Of a stretch of DNA of 64,000 nucleotides, positions 27,354 to 50,489 are shown in pieces (positions within the stretch are counted from its first letter, which is position 1; every line of letters begins with the position of its first letter). Origin of the DNA: a virus. The notes under the pieces are model-generated. The model did no database searches. It had not been told where the DNA came from and saw nothing but the letters and a program-made list of their open reading frames with translations. Made by a program: the position numbers and the translations under genes. The stretch covers positions 39,541-103,540 of IMG/VR virus record IMGVR_UViG_3300025117_000042; one strand, written 5' to 3'.

Positions 27354-28094
27354 ATGCTATTAGACATACCTACTGTCAACGAGAAATCATCTCTGCCAAC
27401 GAGGAAAGCTAAAGTCGATCATCGTCAACTTGCATTAGATAAACTTAAGGAACTGACAGACAGATCCTTCTTCGGAACTGAGAAGGAAATATACAACTTG
27501 TCTATTATATATGACAGGCTGTTGTTGAAGTACACCGGGATAAAAAAGCACTCGCTATCACCTTTGCCGAAGGTAGCTCGTTCAGGTAAGAACTGGCAGA
27601 AGTTTAGAAAGCTCCATTCTCTGCTGTCCACGTACAACTTCCCCGCAGAGCTGTTCATTGAGGTTCAGTTTATGGTGTTTGCTGGTAAACGCAAATTTGC
27701 TGGCAACATCTATCCATTCCCTTCGATGCTGTACGGTCAATGGGCTGAAGAAAACTATGCTAGATTCATTCAGGAACGCATAGAAACAGAAACCCTTGAG
27801 TCAGCTTTCTACACAGAACGATCTAAAATTCAGCAGCAAATCAAAGACTCCATAGAAACAATCAGTAGTTTCAGGAAGTACAATCCAGACGTAACAGAAC
27901 TCCAGTTACTGTTGATGCTTGAGAGTATGCTGTCTCCTGTTTATCTGATAACAAACAAAACTTTTATGAGGTACATCAATGAAAACAACATAGATTTGCC
28001 TTCTGATTTGATAAGTCCACTTATAAGGATGCAAAGGGATAAGCAGTATTATCAAACAGTGCTAAATGTTATAGCTGAAATGAAGGGGAAGTGA
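27354..28094 (+). CDS. Replication protein/helicase loader (putative)
   Basis: ATG 27354 with SD-like AAGGA; YP.PSML motif; directly upstream of the helicase. Confidence 0.45.
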   Translation: MLLDIPTVNEKSSLPTRKAKVDHRQLALDKLKELTDRSFFGTEKEIYNLSIIYDRLLLKYTGIKKHSLSPLPKVARSGKNWQKFRKLHSLLSTYNFPAELFIEVQFMVFAGKRKFAGNIYPFPSMLYGQWAEENYARFIQERIETETLESAFYTERSKIQQQIKDSIETISSFRKYNPDVTELQLLLMLESMLSPVYLITNKTFMRYINENNIDLPSDLISPLIRMQRDKQYYQTVLNVIAEMKGK

Positions 28095-28097
28095 CAG

Positions 28098-29426
28098 ATG
28101 GAACTTGAGAAATTTGATGTTGATATGCAGCAAAAGGTACTTGCTGTAATGGTTCAAGATAGGATGTTCTTAGCTCAGGTGGCTGAGTTAGTGAAACCAT
28201 CGTACTTTGATTCAGAAGTGCTGGTAGATCTGGTAAGGATAACGGAGGATTACTACCGGGAATTTGGGGCAGCTCCTACGCCTTTAGCCTTATCCCATAG
28301 CACAAAAGAGTATCTGCTAGCAGCCAAAAAGAAAAATCCTTCCAGGTACTTCGACATGATCGAAGATATATTTTCTGACTCACTTCCAGAGAAGGATTAT
28401 ATTACAAAAACAACCATAGACTTTGTTCAGGCACACGAAATACGAAATTCGCTTGCGGAATGTGTAGACTTGTGGCAAAATCGGAATTTCAGCAAGATGA
28501 AGCAGATTTTAGACAAGTCTTTCAGCATTTCAGAGGTAAAACGCAGTGCTTACAGGTATTTCGATCCAGAGGCAATCAAAGAGCGATATACGCAAAACAC
28601 CGCAGAGCGGCTACCAACGGGCTATGCAGCGGTTGACAAGAGCATCGACGGAGGGCTATTGCCTGGGGAGCTGGGTATCGTCCTGGCACCTACCAACGTG
28701 GGGAAGTCGATCTGGCTTACGCTTTTTGGCAGCAATGCGCTCAAGCTGCGGAAGTCTGTTTTGCACGTTTCCTTGGAGATGGACAAGCAGCAGATCGGTA
28801 TCAGGTATGACCGTAATCTCACCGGTAAAACCAAGTCCCTACTGGCAGCAGGGGTTGATGATCTGGCTGAGTACCTTTTGGGGTTGCAGAAGTCGTACAA
28901 ATGTGATTTAATCATCGAAAAATTCCCCACCAGGGGGCTTTCTGTCGCGGAACTCAAAGCTTATTTGAACTTTTTAAGGTTAGATAACTTTGTTCCTGGC
29001 CTGATGTTGGTTGACTACGCATCTATTATGAAACCCTCCTCGAAACGGGGCAGTAGGCACGAAGAGATTGAAGAAACTGTTGAAGATTTGAGGGGTTTGG
29101 GCGACGAGTTTGGTATACCCGTATGGAGCGCAGCACAGACAAAGCAAAGTGCAGTCAATAAAAAGCGCATATCAGTCGAGGATTTAGGAGAAGCTTATGC
29201 TCAAGCAAAGGTAGCAGATGTAATTTTCGCTTTATGCCAAACACGATCAGAGAGCTTAAACGATCAGACACGGCTTTTCCTGGCGAAGAATCGTAACGGT
29301 AAAAAGTTTCAAACGTTCTTGTTTCATACGATCTATGACATTATGAGGGTAAGATTTGAGCAGGAGATAACTGATGCTGGCCCATCCGATGATGACGATG
29401 ACAAAGGAAAGGGCAAGCAGAAATGA
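28098..29426 (+). CDS. dnaB: Replicative DnaB/gp41-like helicase
   Basis: Walker A APTNVGKS, SLEM, VDY, WSAAQ and KNRNG motifs. Confidence 0.92.
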   Translation: MELEKFDVDMQQKVLAVMVQDRMFLAQVAELVKPSYFDSEVLVDLVRITEDYYREFGAAPTPLALSHSTKEYLLAAKKKNPSRYFDMIEDIFSDSLPEKDYITKTTIDFVQAHEIRNSLAECVDLWQNRNFSKMKQILDKSFSISEVKRSAYRYFDPEAIKERYTQNTAERLPTGYAAVDKSIDGGLLPGELGIVLAPTNVGKSIWLTLFGSNALKLRKSVLHVSLEMDKQQIGIRYDRNLTGKTKSLLAAGVDDLAEYLLGLQKSYKCDLIIEKFPTRGLSVAELKAYLNFLRLDNFVPGLMLVDYASIMKPSSKRGSRHEEIEETVEDLRGLGDEFGIPVWSAAQTKQSAVNKKRISVEDLGEAYAQAKVADVIFALCQTRSESLNDQTRLFLAKNRNGKKFQTFLFHTIYDIMRVRFEQEITDAGPSDDDDDKGKGKQK

Positions 29427-30451
29427 GTACTCTCCGGTTTGCATTGACAGAAGCTGGCGTAAAGACAAAGCCACTCCCAAAGAAGACCGAATTTGCCATT
29501 AAGTGCTTTAAGTGCAATGACACTGGTATGCACATGTATGTGAATGAAGGGGTTGTAAGGGAAGGAGTCAGAGGCTGGTGTTACTGTCATAGAAGAGGGT
29601 GTGTAGCTACAGTAAAGCAACTTGCTATACATTATCAACTATTATATGATTACGATAGCTATAGAGCTGGTGTTACCACTACAGAGGCAGTGCTTACAAA
29701 GCTAGCCAATTTGGGATTCGAACAGCCAGTAGGCAAGATCAGTATACAAGATAGTTGGTTCAATTTCGATCAGTTTGAGAGTCCTTTAACGTCTAAGTCA
29801 TTTTTCGCACAAAAGGCTAAGACCTATCTCAACAATAGACGAGGCTTTTCAGATCCTCTAATAGCTTTATATGACTTTCGCTTTGCTGATGCAGGGGATT
29901 ATGCCGGAAGGATCATCATCCCATTTACGGAACGTGGCGAATTAGTTTATTTTCAGGCTAGAAGTTATCTGTTAGCATCGACGTTAAAGGTTCTCAATCC
30001 TCCAGAAGGTGTGTTTATAGGGGGGAAGTCTGAATACCTGTACAATTTTGATAGAGCAAGGCTATTTCCAACTGTTGTAATAGCTGAAGGCTGGGCATCT
30101 GCTGTGTCTTGCGGTTTGAATGGGGTTGCGATCAATGGCAATGCCGCTTCTGACATACAGCTCGAAAAGCTATTAGAATATTGGGATAACTACGTTGTAG
30201 TTCTGGATAATGGAGTGGAAGATAAAACATTCGATTTGGCTGAAAGCCTGTTGCACAGGAAACCTAAATCCAATGTGAGTATAGTACTGCTTCCCGAAGG
30301 CGATCCAAATGACTACACATTCAAAGAGATGAAGACATTTATTAGCAATGCTAAGAGATATCATTCAGTCTCTGAGATAAAAGCCGAAGCTATCAAATTC
30401 CCTGCCAGAGGACATGATGATAAAAATAATCAAAGGGATAAACAGCAGTAA
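29423..30451 (+). CDS. DNA primase (Zn finger + TOPRIM)
   Basis: CxxC...CH.xC; GRIIIP, FQAR, EG, LDN and DPND motifs. Confidence 0.88.
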   Translation: MSTLRFALTEAGVKTKPLPKKTEFAIKCFKCNDTGMHMYVNEGVVREGVRGWCYCHRRGCVATVKQLAIHYQLLYDYDSYRAGVTTTEAVLTKLANLGFEQPVGKISIQDSWFNFDQFESPLTSKSFFAQKAKTYLNNRRGFSDPLIALYDFRFADAGDYAGRIIIPFTERGELVYFQARSYLLASTLKVLNPPEGVFIGGKSEYLYNFDRARLFPTVVIAEGWASAVSCGLNGVAINGNAASDIQLEKLLEYWDNYVVVLDNGVEDKTFDLAESLLHRKPKSNVSIVLLPEGDPNDYTFKEMKTFISNAKRYHSVSEIKAEAIKFPARGHDDKNNQRDKQQ

Positions 30452-31829
30452 AGTAGTAACAGATGACGCAAAAGTTTTAATAGAATTAGATGAATTGTTT
30501 GCTTTCAAAGTTCCAGGTTGTGAGTTTGTCGATGCCTACAAGAGGAAGCTATGGGATGGTAAGTCTCATATGTTCAGTAGGTTAACCGGCAAGTTCAACA
30601 CTGGTCTTCTCCCAAGAGTAGTTGATGAAATATACAAGCTTACATCAACTATGCCTACCATAGAAACAACCTACGATCTACTTATTTCAAAGAAACCGAT
30701 AATAGATAAACTGAATGGAATAGAGCTACGACAGTACCAGACTGAAGCAGCTGATGCATTCATGCGTCCTGGTCGAGGTATCGTCAAAGCAGCAACCAAC
30801 TCTGGAAAGACAGAGATAATGGCTGAACTGTTACGAAGGATCAATAGACCTTCTATAGTTCTATTACATAGACAGGAGATTATGTATCAAACAGCAGAAC
30901 GTCTGGAGGAGAGACTATCTGTTCCTGTTGGGATTATTGGTGATAATAATTCTAATATCAAAGATATAACAGTAGTAATGTTTCAGTCAATAACAGAGCG
31001 GAAAGCTGTAAAGAACACTTTTGGGCAAACAAAGAAATCCAAAGCATGGAGAATGAAAGATGAATATAAGCATCTTTGTGATCAGCCTGTACTGTTCTTT
31101 GATGAGTGTCATAATATATCTGATGACAGAGCTAAGATAGTGGCTAAAGAGAGTAAGGCTATATTTCGAGGTGCGTTTTCAGGTACACCTTTGCTGCATG
31201 ATGAAATAACCAATTTGACTCTTGAGGGTCTGTTTGGTGGTGTTGTTTATGAAATATCTAATAAAGAACTTATAGCTTTGGGTGTATCCTCAATCCCGGT
31301 CTGCCACATAATGAAGATCGACACAAAGGGTATTCTGTCTGCCGACTATGCGAAAGCCTACGATAAAGGGGTAGTGTATAGTAGTACCAGGAATGGGGCT
31401 ATAAGGGAGATAGCTGTCAACCATGCTAACGAGGGGAAGAGTGTTCTTATAATAGCAAGGGAGCATAATCATATTATGAACCTGATGGAGCTTATACCAG
31501 GGGCAGAGTATGTGCATGGGGCTATGCCGAGTAAAACCAGGAGAGCCAGATTATTGGCCTTCAAGCAGGGTAAGATTAAAACTCTCATATCATCCACCAT
31601 TCTTGATGAGGGTGTTGATATCTCTAATATAGAGGTGCTGATACTTGCAGCCGGGGGGAAATCCAGTATCAAGATCTTGCAGAGAATCGGTAGGGGGTTA
31701 CGTGCCAACGAGTCGATGCAGCTGGCTGTATATGATTTTATGGATATAGGGAATTGGTATCTTTTGGATCATTCGCAGCAGAGGATACAGATGTTGAAAT
31801 CGGAGGGGTTCAGGGTAAAATTGGGCTAA
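30414..31829 (+). CDS. SF2 DExH helicase (UvsW-like)
   Basis: LRQYQ, ATNSGKT, DECH, SGTP and QRIGRGLR motifs. Confidence 0.92.
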   Translation: MMIKIIKGINSSKVVTDDAKVLIELDELFAFKVPGCEFVDAYKRKLWDGKSHMFSRLTGKFNTGLLPRVVDEIYKLTSTMPTIETTYDLLISKKPIIDKLNGIELRQYQTEAADAFMRPGRGIVKAATNSGKTEIMAELLRRINRPSIVLLHRQEIMYQTAERLEERLSVPVGIIGDNNSNIKDITVVMFQSITERKAVKNTFGQTKKSKAWRMKDEYKHLCDQPVLFFDECHNISDDRAKIVAKESKAIFRGAFSGTPLLHDEITNLTLEGLFGGVVYEISNKELIALGVSSIPVCHIMKIDTKGILSADYAKAYDKGVVYSSTRNGAIREIAVNHANEGKSVLIIAREHNHIMNLMELIPGAEYVHGAMPSKTRRARLLAFKQGKIKTLISSTILDEGVDISNIEVLILAAGGKSSIKILQRIGRGLRANESMQLAVYDFMDIGNWYLLDHSQQRIQMLKSEGFRVKLG

Positions 31830-31848
31830 ACGACTGTTTTTTCCAGGG

Positions 31849-31910
31849 AAAAAATATATTATAAAAGTGCTTGCATTGTTGTGTAGTTTTGATATTATAT
31901 CAGTGTAGCA
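31849..31910 (+). promoter_or_regulatory. Early sigma70-type promoter, copy 1 of a ~62-bp direct repeat
   Basis: A/T UP tract; TTGCAT-16-TATTAT with TGn extension; palindrome TGATAT-T-ATATCA over the -10. Confidence 0.8.
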
Positions 31911-31912
31911 TG

Positions 31913-31926
31913 TTGATCTTTGAAAT
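31913..31926 (+). promoter_or_regulatory. boxA-like antitermination element
   Basis: TTGATCTTTGAAAT resembles the rrn leader boxA and sits between the promoter and the ncRNA. Confidence 0.45.
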
Positions 31927-31929
31927 TAC

Positions 31930-32070: not shown

Positions 32071-32072
32071 GC

Positions 32073-35387: not shown

Positions 35388-36566
35388 ATGCAATGTGAAT
35401 TCTCAGAAAGCTGTAGTCTGCATGGTTCCTGTAACAGCCCTAAGATCAGAATTGAAGGAAAGGTAAACCCTGATGTGCTGATCATTAGCGACTGCCCACA
35501 TGCTGAGGATGATAATTGTAACAGCGTCCTGGTAGGTGAAGGTGGGGAGCTGTTACGTGAAGCTTTGAGGGGCAATGGTTTTAATCTTAGCAAAGTAGCT
35601 TATACGTTTGTGGTGAAATGTAGACCTACGCAACAGAAGTGGGGTAAGATCGTAAATCGTGATCCTTCAGACAAGGAAGTAAAAACGTGTAAGCCTTTTG
35701 TATTAGCAGAGATAGAGGTATTCAAGCCAAAGATCATCCTCCTACTAGGCTCTGTAGCGTTCAAGGCTGTATTAGATGGTAAGGGGATCATGGCTAACCG
35801 GGGAAGGCTGTTTGAATACAACGGTATCCCGGTCATTCCGACCCTTCACCCTGATATGGTTATTAGAGATGATACACATCTAAATCCTTTCGTTAAAGAT
35901 ATCGAAACCCTGTGGAAGTTCTTCACCGGCACTATGCCAGTAGAGGAAAAGCCTACTGATTATATTCTCTGTGACACCAAACAAAAACTAGATGATCTAA
36001 TAGACTATGCTTCAGATAAAGATGAGTCAGCAGTTGACTTAGAAACATCTACTCTCAACATGTTTAAGGATGATTCACAGATCGTATGCTGTAGTTTTTC
36101 CTTCTTCGAATATGAAGCTCACATAATACCTTTGTATAATAAACAACAAATTTTTACCGGCAAGATGTTGAATTACGCAAAAGCGGTGTTAAAGATATTA
36201 TGTGAGTCTGAAATTAGGAAGATCCTTCAAAATGGTAAGTTCGATATCAAGTACCTGGAAGTGACGGAAGGTATTCTATTAAACAACATGGTTTCAGATA
36301 TCATGATGAAGTCCTACCTGTTCAATGAAGAGGCTAAAACACATGCTCTGGATTATCTGGTGTGGCAGTATGTGCCGGAAATGGGGAGCTATTGGGATGG
36401 TCTGGAGCAGTACAAGGCAGAGCACAAGGATTGTGATCCTGAGCAAGGCGGGACGTACAGGAATATTCCTTGGAAAGTAATGATACCTTATGTTGGAGCA
36501 GATACTGATGCTACTATTAGAATAGATCATCGGCTGAATGATTTACTGAAAGGAAAACAACCATGA
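35388..36566 (+). CDS. DNA polymerase N-terminal subunit: family-4 UDG-like domain + 3'-5' exonuclease
   Basis: Fe-S cysteines, VKCRP and TLHP (UDG-4); ExoI DLETS, ExoII QNGKFD, ExoIII Y..AD.D. Confidence 0.85.
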   Translation: MQCEFSESCSLHGSCNSPKIRIEGKVNPDVLIISDCPHAEDDNCNSVLVGEGGELLREALRGNGFNLSKVAYTFVVKCRPTQQKWGKIVNRDPSDKEVKTCKPFVLAEIEVFKPKIILLLGSVAFKAVLDGKGIMANRGRLFEYNGIPVIPTLHPDMVIRDDTHLNPFVKDIETLWKFFTGTMPVEEKPTDYILCDTKQKLDDLIDYASDKDESAVDLETSTLNMFKDDSQIVCCSFSFFEYEAHIIPLYNKQQIFTGKMLNYAKAVLKILCESEIRKILQNGKFDIKYLEVTEGILLNNMVSDIMMKSYLFNEEAKTHALDYLVWQYVPEMGSYWDGLEQYKAEHKDCDPEQGGTYRNIPWKVMIPYVGADTDATIRIDHRLNDLLKGKQP

Positions 36567-37001: not shown

Positions 37002-37541
37002 ATGATTGTGCTTGTCGATATGGATGGAATTGTAGCTAAGTTAGAAGAACCTTGGCTAGCTTTGTATAACAAAGATTATGATGACTGTCTTGTGTCAGAG
37101 GATATGACTGATTTCGATTGGTCGAAGATAGTAAAGCCTGAATGTGGCACTAAGATCTTCAGTTATTTAGCTACAGAAGGCTTATTTCTTAACTGTGAGC
37201 CTTACGAAAACTCAGTTGATGCTTTATTACAACTATATTTAGACAAGCACGAACTGTATTTTGTAACAAAAGCTCATAATCTGGCAAAGTTTGCCGTTAT
37301 AGAGAAGATGGATTGGGTTGACAAGCACTTTCCGTTCATAGGTCGAGATAAAGTTATTTGTACAGGTTATAAGCACTTGATTCGTGGAGATGTTTTAATA
37401 GATGACTACCACAAAAACTTCCGTGGTTTTCAGGGTAAGAAGCTCCTGTTTGATCGTCCCTGGAATAGGAGTGCTTGCGAGATTGATCTGGTGAGAGTTT
37501 ACACCTGGGATCATGTACTTTATGAAATAGAGAATATGTAA
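37002..37541 (+). CDS. 5'(3')-deoxyribonucleotidase (HAD, NT5C-like)
   Basis: VDMDGIV, K..WV..HFPF, LIDD and F..PWN motifs; ATG 37002 with AGGAG SD. Confidence 0.88.
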   Translation: MIVLVDMDGIVAKLEEPWLALYNKDYDDCLVSEDMTDFDWSKIVKPECGTKIFSYLATEGLFLNCEPYENSVDALLQLYLDKHELYFVTKAHNLAKFAVIEKMDWVDKHFPFIGRDKVICTGYKHLIRGDVLIDDYHKNFRGFQGKKLLFDRPWNRSACEIDLVRVYTWDHVLYEIENM

Positions 37542-38902
37542 TGCTTGACGGTGTGTTTCCTTCACAAAATAGTTTCTCAGAGGTAAACGATCATCTGTTT
37601 ATCCCTGCACTGTACGCTCTTAAAGAGGTAGAGAAGCAGGGATTTACTATTGATATGAATAAGTTTCTCTGTTTAGAGGAAGGTTACACAGTAAAGCTGA
37701 ATCAACTGGAGGATAGAGTCAGGAGCTATCCTGAAGTATTGAGTGTAGAAAAGAAGATAGACAAGAAGTTTAACCTTAATTCAGGGGATCAGATACATGA
37801 GCTGTTCTTTGTAGAGATGGGTCTATCTCCTGAAGGTATAGAACCGACAGATAGCGGTAAACGGTTAAGCACTGGTAAGAAGACCATAGCAAAGCTGAAA
37901 GATAAGCATGAGATAGTAGAGCTTATCAATCAGCATAAGAAGTACGCCACACTGTATAAGATGTTCGTTAAGCCATTGAGGAAGCACATTTGTCTTGATG
38001 GCAGGGTACATTGTGTCTATCTCCCTCTTACAAAGACAGGGAGGCTTATCTGTTTCGATCCAAACCTTCAGCAGATACCAAAGAACATAAAAGCTGCTGA
38101 CATAGGTTTCGACTTCGATCCTGCTCTGAACATAAAAACTATGTATATTCCATTCGATAAAGATTATTTATTGATGGAAGCTGACTATAGCCAGATGGAG
38201 CTTAGAATCCTTGCAGCCTATTGCCAGGATGAGGTGATGAAGGGGATCTTACTGCGGGGAGAGGATATTCACTTAGCTACAGGTCAGGCTATGGCCGATA
38301 TCGTGGAGCCTGGGGTTATTGTAGACAAGGACAGCAAATGGAGGAAAGCAGCAAAGACAATCAACTTTGGTATTATATATGGCGAGGGTGACAAGGCTCT
38401 AGCCGAGGCTCTGCATGTAACAGAGAAGGAAGCAAAACAGTTTAAGCGTAACTACTTCGATAGCATGCCTGGGGTTGAAACCTTCCTTGATGATGTATAC
38501 AATTTCGTATACGAAAATAGGTATGTTACTACAATGTTTGGGAATTACCGGAGGTTGTTGGGGGTAACATCTCCTCAGAAGTTTGTCAGGTTTGAGGCAC
38601 TGCGGCAAGCTTTGAACATGCCGATCCAAGGTACAGCAGGGCAGTACACTATCTGTGCTATTATAAACATCATTGATATTATACGTAAGTACAAGATGAA
38701 GTCTCGTATAATAGCAACAATTCACGACTCCATTATGTTTTGTGTACATAAAGATGAGATAAAACAAATGGCAGAGATAGCTCAGACAGTTATGGCGAAT
38801 CCTACTAACCCATTGATTTATTGGGATCTAGGTGTACCACTGAAAGCAGATTTGAAGTTGAGTGAAAATAGTTGGGCGGATCTGAAAGATTTTACACCGT
38901 AA
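37541..38902 (+). CDS. polA: DNA polymerase family A, polymerase-domain subunit
   Basis: TKTGRL...PNLQQIP; motif A DYSQMELR; motif B RKAAKTINFGIIYG; motif C IHDS. Confidence 0.93.
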   Translation: MLDGVFPSQNSFSEVNDHLFIPALYALKEVEKQGFTIDMNKFLCLEEGYTVKLNQLEDRVRSYPEVLSVEKKIDKKFNLNSGDQIHELFFVEMGLSPEGIEPTDSGKRLSTGKKTIAKLKDKHEIVELINQHKKYATLYKMFVKPLRKHICLDGRVHCVYLPLTKTGRLICFDPNLQQIPKNIKAADIGFDFDPALNIKTMYIPFDKDYLLMEADYSQMELRILAAYCQDEVMKGILLRGEDIHLATGQAMADIVEPGVIVDKDSKWRKAAKTINFGIIYGEGDKALAEALHVTEKEAKQFKRNYFDSMPGVETFLDDVYNFVYENRYVTTMFGNYRRLLGVTSPQKFVRFEALRQALNMPIQGTAGQYTICAIINIIDIIRKYKMKSRIIATIHDSIMFCVHKDEIKQMAEIAQTVMANPTNPLIYWDLGVPLKADLKLSENSWADLKDFTP

Positions 38903-39467: not shown

Positions 39468-40493
39468 ATGGCATTCTCAGCGGAAGATGCAAAGAAGAAA
39501 CTGGCAGAGCTTAAAGCAAAAAACAAGGGAGGTGATTATTTACAGTGGAAAGATGGTGCTAACAATCTTAGGGTACTGTGTGACGAGGATCTTGATTGGT
39601 ACGCTGAGGTAGACTTGCATTATTTTAAAGTAGGCAAGGATACAATGGCTGTAGCTTGTAACAAGTCGATAGATGGCAGTGACTGTTACTTCTGTAATAT
39701 GGTAGAAGCTCTGTATGCTACTAAAGATAAAAATGATAAGGAGCTGGCAGGTAGGCTAAAGGCAAAGACACGCTTTTATGCTAATGTAATAGATCGTGAT
39801 GATGACAATAAGATCAAAGTAGCTCAGTTTGGTTCTCAGGTGTTGGAAGGTATGCTAAAGTATTTTGCTCATATCGACTACCAAGATGATTTGTTCACAA
39901 AACCTGATGGGTTTAATTATGATTTTATTGTCACAAAAGCCGGAGAAGGCAAGGATAATACCAAGTATTCTGTTGAGGCTCGTAAGAATCCATCGAAGTT
40001 GGGTGTAAAGAGAGAAGATATCAAGCTTGCCGATCTTAACGCTCTGGCAACAACAGAAGTGTTTACTGCCGATGAGCAGGAGAAGTTGCTGGATGGCACA
40101 AGCAAGGAAGATATTATAAAAGCTAGGAAAGGGGGAGGCGATACAAAGAAGGAGACTAAGAAAGAAACCAAGAAAGAAGAACCTGCGCGTAAAGCGAAAC
40201 CGGAAGTCAAGAAGATGAGTCCAGAAGACAAGTATGCTGAGTATATTAGCAAACTTCCGATGGAGATTCCTAAAGTCAAGAAGCTGTACAACCTGTGGTT
40301 GGAAGATGATGGCACAGAAGAAGGTATCCTTGCCCTGGTCGAGAAGTATGGCGAGGATGATGATCCACCTGTTCCGCCTGAAGAGGAAGAAACTACACCT
40401 GAAACTGAGTCCGGTGATGGAGAGGAATCAGATCTGGATGCAGAGATTAAGGCAGCAGCCGCACGTTTTGCTAAAGGTAAAGGTAAAAAATAA
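39468..40493 (+). CDS. Single-stranded DNA-binding protein (gp32-like)
   Basis: G.N.LRVL, H...C...C.FC Zn site, FYANVIDR, TKY.V; acidic tail. Confidence 0.8.
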   Translation: MAFSAEDAKKKLAELKAKNKGGDYLQWKDGANNLRVLCDEDLDWYAEVDLHYFKVGKDTMAVACNKSIDGSDCYFCNMVEALYATKDKNDKELAGRLKAKTRFYANVIDRDDDNKIKVAQFGSQVLEGMLKYFAHIDYQDDLFTKPDGFNYDFIVTKAGEGKDNTKYSVEARKNPSKLGVKREDIKLADLNALATTEVFTADEQEKLLDGTSKEDIIKARKGGGDTKKETKKETKKEEPARKAKPEVKKMSPEDKYAEYISKLPMEIPKVKKLYNLWLEDDGTEEGILALVEKYGEDDDPPVPPEEEETTPETESGDGEESDLDAEIKAAAARFAKGKGKK

Positions 40494-41235: not shown

Positions 41236-42354
41236 ATGGCAGTGAGAAAAAGCAAGGGAGCAGATCCAGTAGATGATCTAATAGATTCAGCGGTTAAAGC
41301 AGTACAAGGCAAGTTCGGTAAGGAGTCAGTAACAAGGCTTAACAATAGTTCCGATCTGGCTACTATCAAGAGCCATACCAGTTTTGGTCATTGGGGGCTG
41401 GATCGTATTACTGGTGGTGGTGCTCCTGCTGGTAGGTTGGTAGAGCTGTACGGTGCTAACTCAGTAGGGAAGAGCTTTCTAATAGATGCTCTGCTTGCCA
41501 ACTGTCAAGCTCAAGGTGGGATAGCTATATTAGATGACATGGAACATGCCTATGATCGTTTCTTCGGTGAGATTGCTGGTGTAGACAACGATAGGTTGAT
41601 ATACATGGCATCTGAAACTGTTGAGGAGTTTTGGGATCGGATGGAGTGTACTTTGGTTAGTATATTAACAAAGAATCCCAATGCATACATTCTGTACGCT
41701 GGAGACAGTATCGCTCAGGTTCCCTCCAAAGAAGAGAAGAATACCGATCTGGATGATGTAGGTGGATTCAGGACTGAGAAAGCTACAGCCATTACTATAG
41801 GAGCCAGGAAGACCACTAGCTTGATAGGCAAGCACAATGTAGCCTTAGTGATAGTGAATCAGCTGAAACATAAGGTAGGAGTTATGTTTGGCTCTGATGA
41901 GTATTGCGCTGGTGGTGATGCTTTAGGTTTTTGGGCATCTATTAGACTCCGCTTGTCTATTATAGACATGATCCGTGGCAACTTTGATGATGAGGACATG
42001 ACAGCTGCGGAGGAGCTTGAAGAGGATAAGAAGAAGGATAAGAAGAAAGGTGCTCCGAAGAAGGATAGCCCGATCATCGGTGTGCGTGGCAAGGCAATAG
42101 CCAAAAAGAATAAGATAGTGAAACCGTTCCAAGAAACGGAGTTCGATCTGTACTTTGATAAGGGGCTTGACTATACCAGCGGCTGCTTTGATCTACTACG
42201 TAAAGACGGCATAGTATCACCTGGATGTAACAAGGATGGAGAGATGACAAAAGGCTGGTATCTGTACGATGGCGCTAACTGGCGAAAGAAAGAGCTGGAG
42301 CAGCACTTTAGAGAACATCCAGACCTGTTGAAACAATACTCTAATCTGAGGTGA
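41236..42354 (+). CDS. recA: RecA/UvsX recombinase
   Basis: LD...GGG.P.GR.VELYG..S.GKS, D.EHA.D, DS.A, NQL, GG.AL.F.AS.RL and KNK..PF motifs. Confidence 0.95.
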   Translation: MAVRKSKGADPVDDLIDSAVKAVQGKFGKESVTRLNNSSDLATIKSHTSFGHWGLDRITGGGAPAGRLVELYGANSVGKSFLIDALLANCQAQGGIAILDDMEHAYDRFFGEIAGVDNDRLIYMASETVEEFWDRMECTLVSILTKNPNAYILYAGDSIAQVPSKEEKNTDLDDVGGFRTEKATAITIGARKTTSLIGKHNVALVIVNQLKHKVGVMFGSDEYCAGGDALGFWASIRLRLSIIDMIRGNFDDEDMTAAEELEEDKKKDKKKGAPKKDSPIIGVRGKAIAKKNKIVKPFQETEFDLYFDKGLDYTSGCFDLLRKDGIVSPGCNKDGEMTKGWYLYDGANWRKKELEQHFREHPDLLKQYSNLR

Positions 42355-43578: not shown

Positions 43579-43842
43579 ATGCAGAGGAAAGCTAAGGGTG
43601 CTCCGGTAGTTGATGAGGAGGAGTTAACATCGGCTGAGAAGGATAGGAGAAAGCGGTTATTTAATAGAAAGCTCAAAAGCCCTTGCTTGATCTGTGAAAA
43701 GCCCAACATACCACGTTGTATAAGGAAGTGCAAGACGTTAGAATGCTTCCAGCAAGCCTTAAGAAGTGTACCTTTGTATCAGAAAGCAGTAAATACTGAG
43801 GATAATTCTTATGTGATAATGTATGACAGTGAGGAGGAATGA
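43579..43842 (+). CDS. Small Cys-rich basic protein
   Basis: SPC..C....P.C...C pattern. Confidence 0.5.
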   Translation: MQRKAKGAPVVDEEELTSAEKDRRKRLFNRKLKSPCLICEKPNIPRCIRKCKTLECFQQALRSVPLYQKAVNTEDNSYVIMYDSEEE

Positions 43843-43857: not shown

Positions 43858-44199
43858 ATGGCTAAAACTTCTGTGAAGTCCGAAGATCGTACACGCAAAG
43901 TCAGTAACGCACGTATCTATGAGGATGGAGAAATGATAGCTGTAATGGATGGAACAGTAGAAGAAGTAGAGAAGATGGCTCAGAGGTTCCGCAACAGCTC
44001 AAAGCGTAAAGGTGCTGTTGTAGCTCTTAAGTATGAAGGTAAGAAGGTAGAGTTCACTGAAGTAAAATCATTGTCAAAAGAACATAATCCTGACTATGCA
44101 ATAGAAGCAAACGGTGAATGGTTTAATGATAGGGCAAGGCACAATCCCAAAAAGAAAAAAGTAGTTGCGCCTACACTTCCTGTCAGAAAGGCGAAATGA
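43858..44199 (+). CDS. Basic hypothetical protein ending in PVRKAK
   Basis: SD present; ATGA coupling to the next gene. Confidence 0.6.
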   Translation: MAKTSVKSEDRTRKVSNARIYEDGEMIAVMDGTVEEVEKMAQRFRNSSKRKGAVVALKYEGKKVEFTEVKSLSKEHNPDYAIEANGEWFNDRARHNPKKKKVVAPTLPVRKAK

Positions 44200-45266: not shown

Positions 45267-45509
45267 GTGATACCGATGGCTGAAGTAACGAAGAACATAA
45301 CGAACCAGCATGATGAAATCAAAACGATTTGCAACAGTGAAAACTGTGGTGCTGTGCAGACCACACCAACAAAGGTTTATTACAGAGTTGGTGGGGCTAG
45401 GTGCTCCAAATGCAAGGTAGGAACGTTACGTGCTGCTATGAATACCAGTAAAAGGCAGACTCACAAAAATAGCCGGGATCGTAAACCTCGCGGTGGACAG
45501 AAAGGATAA
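45267..45509 (+). CDS. Small Zn-ribbon protein
   Basis: C...CG...CxxC. Confidence 0.5.
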   Translation: MIPMAEVTKNITNQHDEIKTICNSENCGAVQTTPTKVYYRVGGARCSKCKVGTLRAAMNTSKRQTHKNSRDRKPRGGQKG

Positions 45510-45845: not shown

Positions 45846-47449
45846 CCTTCCAGAAAATCATACTAAATAACTTTCAGAGATGGGATCATCTGGAGCTGGA
45901 CCTAGCTTCAGGTGGTCTTATCTTGTTTACCGGTAAGGTGGGATCTGGTAAGTCTTCTATTTGGGATGCACTGACATGGTGTTTGTTCGGTGTAACTCTG
46001 AAGGGACAAAAGGCTGATGAGATAGTAAGCACTTTTGCCGGGAAGGACTGTAGTGTTTTTCTAACAATAGAGGATGGTGATGCAGTTTACACTGTGCAGA
46101 GATACAGAGGTCATAAAGAGCACAAGAATAATTTGTACTTTAAACTAGGTGACACAGACTTAGGTGGCTGGGATACAGACAGTACACAGGAGCGCATTAA
46201 TAGTCAGCTGGGTATGGATGTTAAGCTGTTCACCAACTCTGTAGTATTTGCTCAGGGCTTTAGCAAGGTATTCGTTGCTCTGGATGACACAGAGCAGAAG
46301 AATCTAATAGAAGCATTTATTGATTCTACAGTATATTCTGAAGCTCTGAAGGTGGCAAAGCAAGATGTGCTGGAGTTCTCCGAGAAGGCAAGGGAATACG
46401 AACGGGACGAGGAAGAGCTATTAGCTAAAATAGAGAACCTGGAAGTAGATATAGCTCAGTATGAGGAAGGGCAAGTTAACTTTGAACAGAGACATACCCA
46501 AGCTATAGCGAAGCAGAAGGGAATTCTAAAGGGGCTGATGGATGATTACGACCAGAAACGGAAAGAGCAAAAAGATGCACAGGATCGGTTGCCTAAGATC
46601 CATAAGCAGATTGAGAAATTACAGGCAGAAAAAGACAGCAATGTCTGTACGGCTTGTGGTCAGGGTTTACCCTTCAAACAACAAAATGCATTGGATGATT
46701 TGCAGAACGAAGCACAGGATTTGCGGAGAACCGTTGCAGTATGTGACAGTAGTTTAAAGTACCTGAAGACTCAGAGGGAAGAGACAGCTGAAAACATAGT
46801 GGGGCTGATGGAAGAGGAGGATATCTATGCACAGCTAATAGAAAAGGCCCATAACAAAAAGGTGGAAGCTGAGCTGTTGTTGGTTGAGACACGATCATCT
46901 AAAGCGAGGTACGAGGACAAGCAGGTATTAGCTGAGTTCTTTGTAGAAGGCTTTGGGCCGAGAGGAATTAAGTCTCTGCTGTTCGATGATATACTCCCGG
47001 CGCTTAATCAACATCTGGAATACTATGCTAATATAATTTCTGAAGGAACGATCCAGGTTAAGTTGTTGCCTAACAAGACATTGAAGTCAGGCGATATCAG
47101 AGATAAGTTTTCAATTCAAATATCTAATTCAGAAGGGGGAAAATCATATAAGGACAGCTCTAACGGGGAGAAGCGGCAGATCAATCTGACATTCTTGTTT
47201 GCTATTCAACGATTAGCCAGGGAGAGGCTAAAGTCTTCTATTAATATATCCGTACTGGATGAGCCTTTTGATGCACTGGATTCAGACCATATAGAATCCA
47301 TCTTCAATGTATTAAAAGAGCAAGCAAAGAGTATGTCTGTATTCGTTGTGTCTCATATTGATGACATAAAATCTTCTGCTGCTTTTGATAAGGTGTACCA
47401 TGTAGAGAAACGATCCGGTAGGAGTAGACTTAATGGCATATTATTATGA
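45842..47449 (+). CDS. sbcC: SbcC/Rad50-like ATPase
   Basis: Walker A GKVGSGKS; coiled coil with Zn hook CTAC; signature S.GEK; Walker B LDE. Confidence 0.92.
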   Translation: MTFQKIILNNFQRWDHLELDLASGGLILFTGKVGSGKSSIWDALTWCLFGVTLKGQKADEIVSTFAGKDCSVFLTIEDGDAVYTVQRYRGHKEHKNNLYFKLGDTDLGGWDTDSTQERINSQLGMDVKLFTNSVVFAQGFSKVFVALDDTEQKNLIEAFIDSTVYSEALKVAKQDVLEFSEKAREYERDEEELLAKIENLEVDIAQYEEGQVNFEQRHTQAIAKQKGILKGLMDDYDQKRKEQKDAQDRLPKIHKQIEKLQAEKDSNVCTACGQGLPFKQQNALDDLQNEAQDLRRTVAVCDSSLKYLKTQREETAENIVGLMEEEDIYAQLIEKAHNKKVEAELLLVETRSSKARYEDKQVLAEFFVEGFGPRGIKSLLFDDILPALNQHLEYYANIISEGTIQVKLLPNKTLKSGDIRDKFSIQISNSEGGKSYKDSSNGEKRQINLTFLFAIQRLARERLKSSINISVLDEPFDALDSDHIESIFNVLKEQAKSMSVFVVSHIDDIKSSAAFDKVYHVEKRSGRSRLNGILL

Positions 47450-47589
47450 TATAAAGCCGGGTGTTGTTTGTCCGGTGTGCAGAAGGTCATATCTAATAAT
47501 ATTAGAAGACCTCAGTTTAGCTTTGTGCAAGCGTTGTGGCTTGCGTCTGTTGCCAGTAAATTACCCTGAAGAGAAAAGAGGTAGGAAAA

Positions 47590-48824
47590 ATGGCCGGAGG
47601 AAGGCATAAGAAGGTTATTCGTACAGTAACATTGGAAGAGCTGGAGCCACCTAAACCGGATATGGGTAATTTCAGGCCGAAAGAAGCACACCCTAAAAAG
47701 TGTCCTGCATGTAAAGCCTGGATGGATGAGAAAGCTTCAAATTGTCCTTATTGTGATTTTCTTATGGTAAAACATGAATCCAAAGCTAAATAGCATCTGT
47801 ATGCATGCAGTAGAGAGGTTTAAAACAAGAACAGGTGCTAAGTACTCCAGCAGTAAAGTTAGAGAACGTCTTACACAACTGTATGAACAAGCTGAACGTG
47901 TTGAGTTAAAGCCGAAATTCATAGTCACAACAATACTTCAACACAATTTTGAAGAAGCTGAGTACTACAGTGCTGGTGGCTTTATTATGGTTATAGTCAA
48001 CGGTGAGATGAAGACGGTACACAAAGGAGAGGCGCACAAATGGCAGAAAATGAAGAAGTGAAATGTTGTAATACAAAAGCAAAGTTTGTGACAGCATGGG
48101 CTAAATGTGGAAAGGCGTTTAACCTGTACGTGTGTAGTAAATGTGGTGTAGTGCTGAGAGAGAATTTGACTGGTTCCAGGCAGGTCATGGCTCTTGATAG
48201 CGGAGGAGCTGTTCATGTACTGGAATAACTCATGGAACGTAAAGCAAAGATAAATACTCCTGTCAGGAAAGCTAAGGTAGATCCAGAACCGGAAGAGGAG
48301 TTACATTACGTACTCTACTGTCACTGTTTGTGGTTCCCTTACAAAGACCCGCAGTGTAAGCCTTTACCAAAGGACGAGTACAAAAAATATGTAGCTATGC
48401 TTAAATCTTGGCATCCTGAGTGGTGGGAAGAGGAGAAGAAGCCCTGGACTGAGGCGGTGAAAGTATGAACACTTTAGTAAAAGGATCAACGGTAGACAAT
48501 CTATTAGATAAGTTTGTATCGTTACTTAAATTTTTGGATAAGGACTATGTGGTTATTGATCGTTTGTCCTTCATCCCTATGGAAGCAAGGAGAAAACATG
48601 GTGAGGTGAAGTGGTTTGTGGATCGACCAGGGGTGTTCTGTTATGCCGCCTGGAACGATGATTATACAGATCCGACACAAGGTAGGTTGAAGGTTAATCT
48701 CAGAGTACTGGAGGATGCTTATTGGCAGCATTTTGCTATGGCTAAGGATAAGGCTAAACAGATTATATTAGACAAGCAAGCCGAAGATTACATAGCACAT
48801 ACTGTGTTCGGAGAGGAGAGGTAA
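47590..48824 (+). CDS. Cluster of five small hypothetical ORFs (47590, 47774, 48040, 48232, 48465), several with CxxC
   Basis: Tightly overlapping + strand ORFs with SDs. Confidence 0.55.
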
Positions 48825-49369
48825 TGAAAAAAGGTGGTGGCAGTCTTAAAGGGGGGGCTTTTGAGCGTCAAACTGCAAAGACCTTATCTTTATGGCTCAG
48901 TAACGGTTCTGATAAGGATTTGCTGTGGAGAACGGCATCCTCTGGAGGTAGAGCATCTACTGGCAAGGCAACAACGGGGTTTGGGGATCTTGGTATAGAT
49001 AAGGATCATCCTGATGCCAGGAGGTTCCTCAAGCTGTTTTGTGTCGAGTGTAAGAACTACAAAACAGTATCTATTACAAAAGCCTTCTTCAACGAGAAGA
49101 ACGATCTGTGGAAGTGGTGGGATCAGGCTGTTACACAGGCTAAAGGCGCAGGTTGTTGTCCTATGCTAATAGCTAAAGGTGACAGGCAACCTACGCTGTT
49201 GATATTACCGACAGAGCTTACTTATCTAATAACTAAGATAAAGTTCTGCATGTTTACTGATTCAACTTTGCAAAGCAGTGTGATAGCTGTAGACTTTAAC
49301 GAGTTCCTGGTTACACATACATGGAAGGATGTTTATAATACAATGAAGTCATTTGGAGGTGTCAAGTGA
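48824..49369 (+). CDS. Holliday junction resolvase (PD-(D/E)XK)
   Basis: KG..FER..A..LS.W, R..SGG, GD, VECK and WW.QA motifs. Confidence 0.85.
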   Translation: MKKGGGSLKGGAFERQTAKTLSLWLSNGSDKDLLWRTASSGGRASTGKATTGFGDLGIDKDHPDARRFLKLFCVECKNYKTVSITKAFFNEKNDLWKWWDQAVTQAKGAGCCPMLIAKGDRQPTLLILPTELTYLITKIKFCMFTDSTLQSSVIAVDFNEFLVTHTWKDVYNTMKSFGGVK

Positions 49370-49719
49370 GGAAGTTTGAGACAGGAGCAACACGTAATAG
49401 TGATACAAGCAAGTTTGACTACGAGGGCTTTCTGTCACCAGCTGTGTTAGAGAGGTTCGGTGCTTATATGCACAAGCATCGTACACAAGCTGATGGTAAT
49501 TTCAGGGACTCTGACAACTGGCAAAAGGGAATGCCGAAGACACAGTATATGAAGTCTCTCATAAGGCATACTATTGACTTGTGGAGAGCACATAGAGGTT
49601 ATATTGTAATAGACAAGGACTCAGGTGAACGTGTTACAAAGGAAGAGTTGCTTTGTGCTATTATCTTTAACGCTCAAGGTTATCTGTTTGAGATGCTACG
49701 TAAACGGAAAAGACAATGA
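49366..49719 (+). CDS. dATP/dGTP diphosphohydrolase-like (DUF5664) protein
   Basis: RKFETGA.R, NWQKG.P, SL.RH and A..FN motifs. Confidence 0.75.
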   Translation: MRKFETGATRNSDTSKFDYEGFLSPAVLERFGAYMHKHRTQADGNFRDSDNWQKGMPKTQYMKSLIRHTIDLWRAHRGYIVIDKDSGERVTKEELLCAIIFNAQGYLFEMLRKRKRQ

Positions 49720-50489
49720 AAAAGACAGATGACGCAAGCCAGATAGAGCGTAAATCGAAACGGTTTGATACCTCTGAAGATAAGATAACCGCAAGGAAGG
49801 GGAAGGGGGGCAAGGATAACCTTACTCCCTTTGAGCCTGGAGTAGCTTGTAAACGTTATGCTATGGAGAAACAGATGAAGGCCAAAGCTCTGTTTCTGTC
49901 GAAGAAAGGTAATATATCAGATGCGGCTATCGCTAAGGCTGTAAACGCAAGTCATCGTAGTGTTATTAGGTGGCGGCATGACCAGAAATGGGAAGAGGAG
50001 CTGGAGAGGTTTCAAGCTGAGTTTAAGGAAGATTTGGTAGGCATGATACGGGATGCTGCACAGTCACAGATACCTCCTACAGTCACTGATGAGCAGTTGG
50101 TGGGCGTGGTTCAGGAGATAGTTGGCCCGACTGTAGCGACACATCTATCAGAGTTTCTTGTCAGGATACACAAGGCAGACCTGGAAGATCTGGAGAAGCT
50201 GAACATTGCTATTAGACATAAGCTTACTCCGAATGCTGATGGTAAGATTGATGTTGCGCCTATGGCTATTTCACAGCTGGTGAATGCCAAGATTAATATT
50301 ATAAAAGGTGTAAGGCTTATCCTGGGGCAGTCTACAGAGAATATCAAGCCTATCGGTGCTGGTGGGGATGAAGAAATAGCTATAGCTATATCGGTATCCC
50401 CTGAGATAGCACGTAGCTTGAGTACATTATCTAATATCACTGATGCAGAATTTACGGAGCTACCAAAGGAGAATGTAGATGGAGAGTAA
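49716..50489 (+). CDS. Terminase small subunit (putative)
   Basis: NL.PF motif; HTH (A..LF....G......IA..V......V..W.....W); helical oligomerisation region; upstream of TerL. Confidence 0.6.
   Translation: MKKTDDASQIERKSKRFDTSEDKITARKGKGGKDNLTPFEPGVACKRYAMEKQMKAKALFLSKKGNISDAAIAKAVNASHRSVIRWRHDQKWEEELERFQAEFKEDLVGMIRDAAQSQIPPTVTDEQLVGVVQEIVGPTVATHLSEFLVRIHKADLEDLEKLNIAIRHKLTPNADGKIDVAPMAISQLVNAKINIIKGVRLILGQSTENIKPIGAGGDEEIAIAISVSPEIARSLSTLSNITDAEFTELPKENVDGE

Follow-up and report, generated by a model that had tools for sequence, protein, structure and literature searches.

In a contractile-tailed phage, proteins of DNA replication, recombination and packaging carry the short basic motif R-K-[AS]-K in their floppy ends well above the chance level, with modest statistical significance. 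By analogy with the T4 gp32 LAST motif, we tentatively propose that the copies may act as short disordered basic arms through which these proteins contact nucleic acid and/or acidic tails on the gp32-like SSB and DnaB-like helicase. The phage genome under study (G000, 103.5 kb) contains eight RKAK and three RKSK sequences. Eight of these copies lie in the window, the 64,000-nucleotide stretch analyzed here, and three lie elsewhere; one RKSK falls in a probably spurious minus-strand ORF. A first-pass annotation had listed the eight window copies, and all are found in frame where it placed them, with the codon variation it described (AGG/AGA/CGT; GCT/GCA/GCG). The copies and one further feature are as follows:

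27402..27413, + strand, RKAK in SLPTRKAKVD, loader-like protein, in frame
40188..40199, + strand, RKAK in PARKAKP (EEPARKAKPE), linker of the gp32-like SSB, in frame
40359..40430, + strand, acidic stretch in the SSB C-terminal region (about aa 298-321), candidate counter-surface with a putative role
41245..41256, + strand, RKSK in MAVRKSKG (MAVRKSKGADPVDDL), N-terminus of the RecA/UvsX-like recombinase
43585..43596, + strand, RKAK in MQRKAKG (MQRKAKGAPVVDEEE), N-terminus of the small Cys-rich protein 43579-43842
44185..44196, + strand, RKAK in APTLPVRKAK-stop, last four residues of the small protein 43858-44199
48238..48249, + strand, RKAK in MERKAKIN, first copy in the small protein 48232-48468
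48265..48276, + strand, RKAK in NTPVRKAKVDPEPEEE, second copy in the small protein 48232-48468
49749..49760, + strand, RKSK in SQIERKSKRF, aa12 of the TerS-like protein 49716-50489

Both RKAK copies of the small protein 48232-48468 lie within MERKAKINTPVRKAKVD. Three motif copies have AGGAAAGCTAA in common, largely because of codon preference (AGG 28%, AAA 50%, GCT 53%). The flanks also repeat, with P-[VT]-RKAK-V-D occurring twice and PVRKAK three times. From the consensus P-x-R-K-[AS]-K drawn up in the annotation, the R-K-[AS]-K core is present in all eight window copies while Pro at position -2 is found in only four.

The motif is enriched among non-homologous DNA-transaction proteins

The naive expectation for RKAK is 0.35 copies in the 20,442 residues encoded by the 106 plus-strand ORFs of the window, in agreement with the earlier estimate of less than one. 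Treated as a 4-mer fixed beforehand, six or more copies have a probability of at most 0.001 (1000 shuffles for each of three kinds), and the motif remains enriched after composition-preserving shuffles. Look-elsewhere corrections are needed because the 4-mer was chosen after the data had been seen, and some 4-mer reaches at least five proteins in 72-84% of shuffles. RKAK is the top 4-mer by minimum Poisson p (1.7e-6, window), a value equalled in 10.5% of 400 local shuffles. Genome-wide (169 ORFs, 33,194 aa), RKAK is found eight times against 0.52 expected (p = 7.9e-8), a signal equalled in 4% of 300 shuffles after the same type of correction. The corrected enrichment is consequently modest, with p about 0.10 for the window and 0.04 for the genome. 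RKSK occurs three times in the genome against about 0.5 expected.

The copies are concentrated in the replication/recombination/terminase block, which contains eight against 0.43 expected (P = 1.9e-8, a 19-fold excess). Among the proteome's top three 4-mers, RKAK alone is explained neither by paralogy nor by a zinc knuckle. The carriers are not paralogs of each other, with every pairwise E at or above 0.01, and those that can be named are DNA-transaction proteins: the gp32-like SSB, RecA, the TerS-like protein and the loader-like gene beside DnaB. Short linear motifs are generally 3-10 residues long, lie in disordered regions, are evolutionarily plastic and arise convergently in unrelated proteins. 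Recurrence in non-homologous proteins above the level set by composition, as expected of such motifs, is observed here at modest significance.

Copies are preferentially terminal and strictly begin with Arg

Seven of the 11 RK[AS]K copies are located within 15 residues of a protein end, against 2.3 expected, and the SSB copy occupies a linker. The terminal location typical of short linear motifs is thus observed, and structural models show no secondary structure in the 43858 tail or, at low confidence, around the SSB copy. The annotation's placement of all copies in termini or linkers applies to most of them; several are found inside the protein or 12-17 residues away from its end. Its statement that virion proteins are free of the motif stands save for the copy in the probably spurious minus-strand ORF; this absence is uninformative because only 0.27 copies would be expected there.

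The sequence preference is narrow. Genome-wide, RK[ASP]K is found 13 times against 1.27 expected, while KK[ASP]K occurs once (1.94 expected) and KR[ASP]K not at all (1.27 expected). The relative G001 repeats this pattern, with nine RK[ASP]K against 1.35 expected. Such strict use of Arg at position 1, never Lys, goes beyond what simple electrostatics would predict and suggests that a defined pocket or groove is involved, a point against the contact-arm reading proposed below.

A subset of copies is conserved at the protein level

For genome-scale comparison one near-complete relative was available, G001, with a mean identity of 61% over 105 protein pairs. RK[ASP]K is retained in the relative's orthologs of seven of 11 carriers and in one of 94 non-carriers, with four of the 11 carrier orthologs having none. 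In five of the seven the motif is found at the same position, partly because of shared ancestry at 61% identity. With the 13 RK[ASP]K sites taken together, motif positions are 54% identical (28/52) and flanking positions 46% (118/254; p = 0.36). About half of the copies show no conservation in G001. Those at genome 12589, at the C-terminus of the genome-8842 protein, at aa43 of the loader-like protein and the first copy of the 48232 protein are lost there. Positions shift from aa43 to aa76 in the loader-like protein, from aa241 to aa251 in the SSB and from C-terminal to internal in the genome-8842 protein. As four of its five RKAK copies are orthologous, the relative does not constitute an independent test.

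Four sites are kept in G001 with synonymous codon changes, indicating a constraint on protein rather than DNA, as the annotation had argued from codon usage. Deeper families keep a looser R-[KRQ]-[PAS]-[KRH] and not RKAK itself, with motif flavours varying by family. An Arg-centred pattern is conserved independently in three unrelated families. On the contact-arm reading set out below, selection would act on five or six copies, namely those at the recombinase and 43579 N-termini, at the C-terminus of 43858 and in TerS, the second of the two 48232 copies and, loosely, that in the SSB linker. The remaining copies are probably due to chance or of recent origin. Conservation in orthologs, proposed earlier as a check, therefore holds at a subset of sites and fails at about half. 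Loss of enrichment after correction for composition or lack of conservation had been named as grounds for abandoning the idea; enrichment persists and a subset is kept, and the idea of a common docking, localisation or modification tag is partly supported as a whole.

SSB, recombinase, loader-like and TerS-like carriers

The SSB (39468-40493) belongs to the gp32 family, matching PF08804 over residues 28-205 with 46.0 bits (cut-off 26.8) and phrog_1192 with E = 5.2e-33. Its RKAK lies at aa241, past the PF08804 match, in a K/E-rich linker that follows the OB core. This stretch is indel-rich, and residues 221-251 are without secondary structure in an AF2 model of poor quality (pLDDT below 50). 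R-K-[AP] is present in the linkers of four of five orthologs at shifted positions. The linker is followed by a C-terminal three-helix domain (aa 252-294), the acidic stretch and a terminal helix, the protein ending in a conserved amphipathic helix with a Lys-rich tip. Of all 20-residue windows in the module, the one starting at aa305 of the SSB is the most acidic (net charge -11), and the acidic stretch is disordered in the AF2 model. The DnaB-like helicase likewise carries an acidic run near its C-terminus.

The recombinase (41236-42354) is a RecA family member (PF00154, 142.6 bits, cut-off 27) of UvsX-like type (phrog_97, E = 4.5e-52). In alignment A1, comprising 11 orthologs down to 41% identity, Arg is present at the N-terminal motif in 10, R-K in eight and strict RK[AS][KR] in five; the L003 recombinase adds QRKSKAV. 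The longest ORF of the loader-like protein (27276-28094) is located directly upstream of the DnaB-like helicase and matches phrog_14232, a family of unknown function. A start at ATG 27354 (aa27), preceded by AAGGA 9-13 nt ahead, appears likelier, placing RKAK, at aa43 of the longest ORF, 17 aa from the start. The ortholog in G001 carries ARKSKNW at the shifted position. The TerS-like protein shows a weak match to phrog_2538 TerS (E = 6.8e-6) and is encoded directly upstream of the TerL region. Its G001 ortholog has IERKAKNL at the same site.

Small-protein carriers

The N-terminus of the 43579 protein reads MRRKAK-APVID in G001, with three of four motif codons synonymously changed, and the L004 ortholog is without such a tail. 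The 43858 stop codon overlaps the start of an SbcD-like gene (44196). This protein defines a new small-protein family of 14 sequences sharing 15-27% identity. Its tail Arg is invariant (14/14), and 11 of the 14 fit R-[KRQ]-[PAS]-[KRH] at the terminal element, with strict RK[ASP][KR] in only three. The G001 member keeps the motif as LPIRKAKA, and most distant members carry a second R-x-P-[RH] upstream. The AF2 model (mean pLDDT 65.6) predicts a beta-beta-alpha-beta-beta core at residues 14-69 and a tail (70-113) devoid of secondary structure. The G001 ortholog of the 48232 protein begins M-TPIRKAK; its TPIRKAKII corresponds to the second copy, with AGG changed to CGT and GCT to GCG.

The motif may form basic contact arms

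R-K-[A/S/P]-[K/R], often preceded by Pro-x, would represent a recurrent basic arm in disordered N- and C-terminal tails and in one linker. Each arm would provide a flexible grip on the nucleic-acid backbone and/or on the acidic tails of the SSB and DnaB-like helicase, the acidic runs described above being candidate counter-surfaces. Such contacts could keep the local concentration of the carrier proteins high on DNA and on ssDNA coated with SSB. Similar arms would have arisen or been retained independently in several families, with no single dedicated receptor. Minor-groove motifs such as AT-hooks (R-G-R-P core) and SPKK are short Arg/Lys/Pro arms in disordered parts of DNA-binding proteins and have a specific requirement for Arg. 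The copies described here differ in that none contains a G-R-P core or S-P-K-K, and their DNA contact is a prediction from sequence.

The closest likeness is to LAST, (Lys/Arg)3(Ser/Thr)2, present in T4 gp32 as KRKST (residues 3-7) and KRKTS (110-114), in the SSB N-domain and the ssDNA trough of the core; one copy contacts ssDNA while the other docks on a neighbouring protein, and this docking on the adjacent SSB leads to cooperative ssDNA binding (PMC12424627). LAST is likewise a very short, multi-use basic motif of an SSB of the same family (PF08804), has one copy at an N-terminus and serves both ssDNA contact and docking on an acidic region, the roles proposed here. It differs in having three consecutive basic residues before Ser/Thr instead of R-K-small-K and, in the available text of that report, it is known only within gp32, whereas the motif here spans at least seven unrelated proteins. 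The copies are not LAST sequences: each reads R-K-[A/S]-K, and in none do three consecutive basic residues precede two hydroxyl ones. Nor does the position correspond, with the SSB N-terminus reading MAFSAEDAKKKL (DAKKK, no RKAK) and RKAK lying at aa241.

The complementary half of the proposed mechanism also has precedents. The acidic C-terminal domain of T4 gp32 is described as a partner-binding hub (PMC12424635) and the acidic tail of T7 gp2.5 as an interaction hub (PMC10359462). As presented in the available parts of these sources, known partners use folded basic patches and no shared linear motif, in contrast to the arms proposed here, and the SSB of this phage ends in its amphipathic helix and Lys-rich tip, not in a purely acidic tip. 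An RPA32C-binding motif is common to XPA, UNG2, SMARCAL1, TIPIN, Rad14 and NEIL1 (PMC11387677). In that system, which is of the type proposed by the annotation, a similar basic motif is found in disordered regions of DNA-transaction proteins that are not related to one another, and it docks on an acidic surface of an ssDNA-binding protein. The RPA32C motif differs in being a longer, helical, eukaryotic element whose affinities for a winged-helix domain have been measured, whereas the present motif is known from sequence.

Alternative explanations

The contact-arm reading has to be weighed against a dedicated docking motif, in which RK[ASP]K with Pro-x before and often Val/Gly-Asp after would be read by one common receptor that gathers unrelated proteins at one place, like clamp-binding or RPA32C-binding motifs. 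Candidate receptors are the gp32-like SSB surface, the recombinase, the SbcCD-like nuclease or a host protein. Specificity beyond charge, with neither K-K nor K-R replacing R-K in G000, argues for such a receptor, as do the recurring flanks, the Arg conservation in two deep families (RecA clade 10/11, 43858 14/14) and the retention bias in G001 (7/11 against 1/94). Carrier status is also kept while positions turn over, a tendency of functional linear motifs. The concentration on one sequence is not seen in four comparator phages, where no basic 4-mer exceeds three copies in the RecA +-20 kb regions, and the SSB linker copy could be an internal competitor, as proposed for gp32 in the available text of PMC12424627. 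Retention at the same position is however partly explained by ancestry, flavours differ among families, half of the copies are not conserved, and the similarity of the recombinase N-terminal flanks to the proteome is not significant (24.5% of shuffled queries score equally high). We consider a dedicated docking motif doubtful, and a generic nucleic-acid or acidic-tail contact arm fits the data at least as well.

We also doubt that the copies lack any shared function, the common 4-mer being a coincidence amplified by choosing it after the data were seen. A few independently useful basic tails, for example those making recombinase filament contacts, a TerS DNA arm and the 43858-family tail, would then coexist with chance copies in a Lys-rich proteome. 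The look-elsewhere p of only 0.04-0.10, the ease with which some 4-mer reaches five proteins in shuffles, a motif overall no better conserved than its flanks, the four losses in G001 and the RKSK in a probably spurious ORF are consistent with this, and Bacillus phage SP-10 shows a comparable class-level excess of basic-small-basic 4-mers (12 against 5.0). Coincidence accounts less readily for RKAK topping the proteome's 4-mers, the strong R-K specificity, the terminal bias, the 19-fold excess in one functional block and the fact that three unrelated families have each preserved the Arg-centred pattern over deep divergence. A tag marking proteins for ClpX-type remodelling or degradation, for cleavage or for Lys/Arg modification is very unlikely. 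ClpX tags on phage replication and transposition proteins are similarly short, terminal and disordered, including the basic C-terminal RRKKAI of MuA and the lambda O N-terminus (PMC8138137), and two copies do end their proteins, 43858 in RKAK and genome-8842 in RKAKGK. Yet those ClpX tags are found at the extreme terminus and differ in sequence. Of the 11 RK[AS]K copies in G000, only these two reach a C-terminus or stop no more than two residues short of it, unlike a MuA-type tag; the others are N-terminal or internal, and several are well inside the protein or 12-17 residues away from its end. Among 121 ORFs scanned against Pfam, there is no protease, kinase, ADP-ribosyltransferase, acetyltransferase or phage-nucleus shell protein and no compartment shell or tubulin-like positioning family, although this negative is weak, most ORFs having no family match.

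Basic contact arms thus remain our preferred, tentative reading. In an unlikely but more specific version of docking, a single acidic receptor, likeliest the SSB C-terminal region, would read an RK[ASP]K tag, with Pro-x before it, on the recombinase, loader, TerS, SSB linker and several small proteins that are zinc-binding or of unknown type. The internal SSB copy would compete in cis, and receptor and motif flavour would evolve together from phage to phage (RKAK here; RRPR/RKPR in distant 43858 members). If docking at such a hub were true, it would assemble a replication-recombination-packaging factory and give prokaryotic viruses an equivalent of the motif systems that bind RPA32C or the clamp.

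The RKAK/RKSK motif and the proteins that carry it

The basic tetrapeptide RKAK/RKSK of this phage is a real motif, sequence-specific and constrained at the protein level at a subset of its sites. Eight copies had been picked out in the window by the first-pass annotation, in a loader-like protein, a gp32-like SSB, a RecA/UvsX-like recombinase, a TerS-like protein and three small proteins named by ORF start (43579, 43858 and 48232). All eight are in frame where it placed them, with the contexts and the varying codons it described. Outside the window, the genome (G000) adds two RKAK and one RKSK:

RKAK, C-terminal end (RKAKGK) of a 166-aa Cys-rich protein
RKAK, aa81 of a 514-aa protein
RKSK, minus-strand ORF, probably spurious

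The window covers bases 39541-103540 of one virus contig of 103,540 bp. By gene content the virus is assigned to the contractile-tailed phages, and almost all genes of the window lie on the + strand. No close named relative emerged when the phage collection was searched by DNA, and the best named-phage RecA is only 32% identical to the G000 recombinase.

Gene content according to Pfam and PHROGs
Virion: portal, SU10-type capsid, sheath, baseplate J, tail-collar fibre
Replication: DnaB-like helicase, primase, second helicase, family-A polymerase split in two
SSB and recombinase: gp32-family SSB (PF08804), RecA/UvsX-like recombinase (PF00154)
Nucleases: 5'-3' exonuclease, SbcD/SbcC-like nuclease subunits, RusA/PDDEXK-type resolvase
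Packaging: TerS-like protein and TerL, after the replication/recombination genes

The split polymerase occupies two genes (window 35388-36566 and 37541-38902), one combining a uracil-DNA-glycosylase-like domain with a 3'-5' exonuclease and the other holding the polymerase domain. Two genes separate them, one an NT5C-type deoxynucleotidase, and this order is also present in the near-complete relative G001. The phage further encodes an RNA-repair-like set (genome 2548-3237, genome 5871-6827 and window 55461-56144) made up of a Thg1-like tRNA-His guanylyltransferase domain, an RlaP-family nucleotidyltransferase and an RNA ligase. Proteins P0001, P0002, P0058, P0073 and P0074 are also found on contigs of ~204-206 kb, twice the genome length, which suggests concatemeric or duplicated assemblies of the G000 phage and of G001.

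The bare count is modest evidence

Fewer than one RKAK had been anticipated by chance, in agreement with a naive expectation of 0.35 in the window. Had the 4-mer been fixed beforehand, at least six copies would have a probability of <= 0.001 under each of three types of window shuffle that preserve composition. The significance of the bare count is only modest, because the 4-mer was chosen post hoc, after the data had been seen, and look-elsewhere shuffles that correct for this choice reach the observed value. RKAK is the top-ranked 4-mer of the window by minimum Poisson p (1.7e-6), and 10.5% of 400 local shuffles are as extreme; for the whole genome (8 copies vs 0.52 expected, p = 7.9e-8), 4% of 300 shuffles equal the result. 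Some 4-mer is present in at least five proteins in 72-84% of shuffled proteomes. Gene calls were longest ORFs, a few likely spurious small ORFs among them.

The rival top-ranking 4-mers have other explanations: HVHD/EHVH belongs to a repeated domain, CSKC to zinc knuckles. A conserved segment of ~25 residues, SDY.R.R.GKLEHVHD.R, is present three times in a 1070-aa DUF7178 protein (genome 15770-18982, outside the window) and a fourth time in a 334-aa protein with an S-adenosylmethionine lyase domain (genome 23119-24123). CSKC is found in four small proteins (4 copies vs 0.05 expected; window 45267-45509, 48040-48228 and 53767-53904; genome 3919-4407), which are probably independent zinc-ribbon proteins.

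The Arg-Lys order and the position of the copies are non-random

The consensus RK[ASP]K, broadened after the data had been seen, occurs 13 times in G000 against 1.27 expected, whereas the equally basic KK[ASP]K shows no excess (1 vs 1.94) and KR[ASP]K is absent (0 vs 1.27). The pattern is the same in G001 (RK[ASP]K 9 vs 1.35 expected), where the counts are largely orthologous to the G000 copies and hence not independent. The replication/recombination/terminase block contains 8 RK[AS]K against 0.43 expected (P = 1.9e-8). That virion proteins lack the motif, as had also been pointed out, carries no weight because just 0.27 copies are expected in the virion block. Copies cluster near protein ends: within 15 residues of a terminus lie 7 of the 11 in G000, where 2.3 are expected, and 6 of the 8 in G001; the loader copy probably lies 17 residues from the true start. 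Around RecA (±20 kb) in four other phages, basic 4-mers reach at most 3 copies each. In Bacillus phage SP-10, basic 4-mers as a class are in similar excess, but spread over several variants.

The probable start of the loader-like ORF (27276-28094) is the ATG at 27354 (aa27), 9-13 nt downstream of AAGGA, and not the TTG at 27276. The "helicase loader" label comes from its position upstream of the DnaB-like gene alone, its sole family match having no known function.

Cryptic paralogy of the carriers was rejected, as all pairwise BLASTP E-values are at least 0.01 and hits covering the motif span 5-12 residues. Mimicry of the recombinase N-terminus beyond the 4-mer by 43579 and other proteins is likewise unsupported: the best proteome hit scores 38 vs 35.9 ± 3.2 for shuffled queries, 24.5% of which reach 38. 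A DNA-level signal read in frame (ribosome-binding site, promoter or repeat) was rejected on codon preference and synonymous differences. The sequence AGGAAAGCTAA occurs three times, each in frame at a motif copy, and is absent elsewhere on both strands; its codons are the preferred ones, which explains its recurrence. Constraint acts on the protein and not on the DNA, since G000 and G001 differ synonymously at conserved sites, with AGG AAA GCT AAG vs AGA AAA GCC AAA in 43579 and AGG..GCT vs CGT..GCG in 48232.

A second type of basic tail, K-G-K-G-K, recurs at C-termini, and KGKG is found in 5 proteins. G001 keeps the Lys-rich C-termini of helicase and SSB.

K-G-K-G-K-type tails
29388-29426, DnaB-like helicase C-terminus: acidic run, then KGKGKQK
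40470-40493, SSB C-terminus: ends AKGKGKK
28080-28094, loader C-terminus: ends MKGK
genome 9325-9342, protein genome-8842 (named by ORF start): ends RKAKGK

An Arg-centred element is conserved at a subset of sites

Viral and metagenome scans identified G001 and four short contigs as relatives, while genome-contig scans found none. G001 (102,805 bp) shares 105 reciprocal-best pairs with G000 at a mean identity of 61%. Word-based homolog searches with 43858 and TerS returned G001 orthologs only. The motif is present in the G001 orthologs of 7 of 11 carriers but in only 1 of 94 non-carriers, and 5 of the 7 retained carriers have it at an unchanged position.

Fate of the copies in G001
Kept: 43579 N-terminus, 43858 C-terminus, second 48232 copy, TerS (RKSK to RKAK)
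Part-kept: SSB (RKAK to RKPK, about five residues on), recombinase (RKSK to RQSK)
Lost: loader aa43, first 48232 copy, both out-of-window copies
New: loader aa76 RKSK, internal RKAK at a G000 RKPK, C-terminal RKSK on a DUF1353 protein

Pooled over all 13 sites, 28/52 motif residues and 118/254 flanking residues are identical (p = 0.36), so the motif is conserved no better than its surroundings. Deeper alignments are more informative. The N-terminal Arg is found in 10 of 11 recombinase orthologs, which range down to 41% identity; 8 of them have R-K and 5 the strict RK[AS][KR]. SSB linkers retain R-K-[AP] in 4 of 5 sequences despite scrambled surroundings. In the 43858 family, collected by exhaustive profile search, all 14 members, mostly 15-27% identical, share an invariant Arg in the C-terminal tail; 11 of the 14 end in R-[KRQ]-[PAS]-[KRH], and most distant members have a second R-x-P-[RH] upstream. 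Single-probe searches with three distant members gave no match. From these comparisons, five or six sites are under selection for an Arg-centred basic element, and the remaining copies look like chance or recent turnover.

The motif lies in disordered segments of the 43858 family and the SSB

Proteins related to 43858 are ~80-113 aa long with a core ARIYVGG...AQ..AN.wP (window 43858-44199; positions 5609-5848 of L004, a short contig of a distant relative) and have no match in Pfam or PHROG. The family model, of moderate-to-low confidence (mean pLDDT 65.6), predicts a small beta-beta-alpha-beta-beta core (residues 14-69), followed by a tail (residues 70-113) without secondary structure. Foldseek against the PDB found no fold at E <= 0.001 (best 0.21), and the protein atlas gave no usable match. 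We regard this as a new small-protein family. Its gene lies directly upstream of an SbcD-like gene and overlaps its start both in the window and in L004, and this adjacency points to a role as nuclease accessory factor.

In the SSB model, which is of poor quality (mean pLDDT 47.3), the motif falls within residues 221-251, an unstructured stretch, in agreement with the indel-rich SSB alignment (A2). Beyond it lie a three-helix domain (252-294), then a disordered acidic stretch and finally a terminal helix. In contrast to T4 gp32 as described, this SSB clade has extra C-terminal elements after the linker (window 40224-40493, aa 252-341). The three-helix domain is conserved and is the best-modelled part (pLDDT ~70); the terminal helix is amphipathic and likewise conserved (LD.E....AL.RF), and its tip is Lys-rich. 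Co-folding of SSB (A2) with the 43858 family (alignment A5) scored 0.00, a "no answer" that weighs neither way on binding.

Possible roles of the motif

Our tentative preference, which we hold at somewhat short of even chances, is that the copies are short disordered basic arms analogous to the LAST motif of T4 gp32. Such arms would touch nucleic acid, the acidic runs found on the gp32-like SSB and at the helicase C-terminus, or both. In the passages of PMC12424627 on LAST, basic pentapeptides that are almost identical contact ssDNA at one location and dock a protein at another, and the part of PMC12424635 on gp32 names its acidic C-terminal domain as the hub for partner proteins. The dedicated docking motif first proposed is rather unlikely, though the strict Arg-Lys preference, the invariant Arg and the positional turnover of copies all speak for it. 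The known system most like it in kind is the RPA32C-binding motif, common to unrelated repair proteins in the relevant section of PMC11387677.

About as doubtful is the reading that the copies have no shared function. A degron, protease or modification tag is improbable; it has precedents in the MuA RRKKAI and lambda O tags (PMC8138137 Table 1). The little probability left over goes to other explanations. None of the 121 ORFs scanned was recognised as a compartment gene or as coding for a protease or modifying enzyme, a weak negative. The motif is best filed with known short basic contact motifs on DNA-transaction proteins, as a new variant and at most a putative docking tag.

Implications

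Shared linear motifs link unrelated DNA-transaction proteins to one hub in the case of sliding clamps, bacterial SSB tips and eukaryotic RPA. To our knowledge, such hub-linking motifs have barely been described for phage replication factories, and a full-text literature search found no papers on an RKAK motif in phage. A true docking tag would offer a sequence handle for partner proteins among the unannotated small ORFs of this phage group and a way into how gp32-type SSBs coordinate recombination, replication and packaging, and would test whether the T4 LAST idea extends beyond gp32. A generic basic arm would be of less value. It would still give an annotation to disordered tails in several families, and it defines as new the small-protein family whose C-terminal arginine is invariant, beside an SbcCD-like nuclease.
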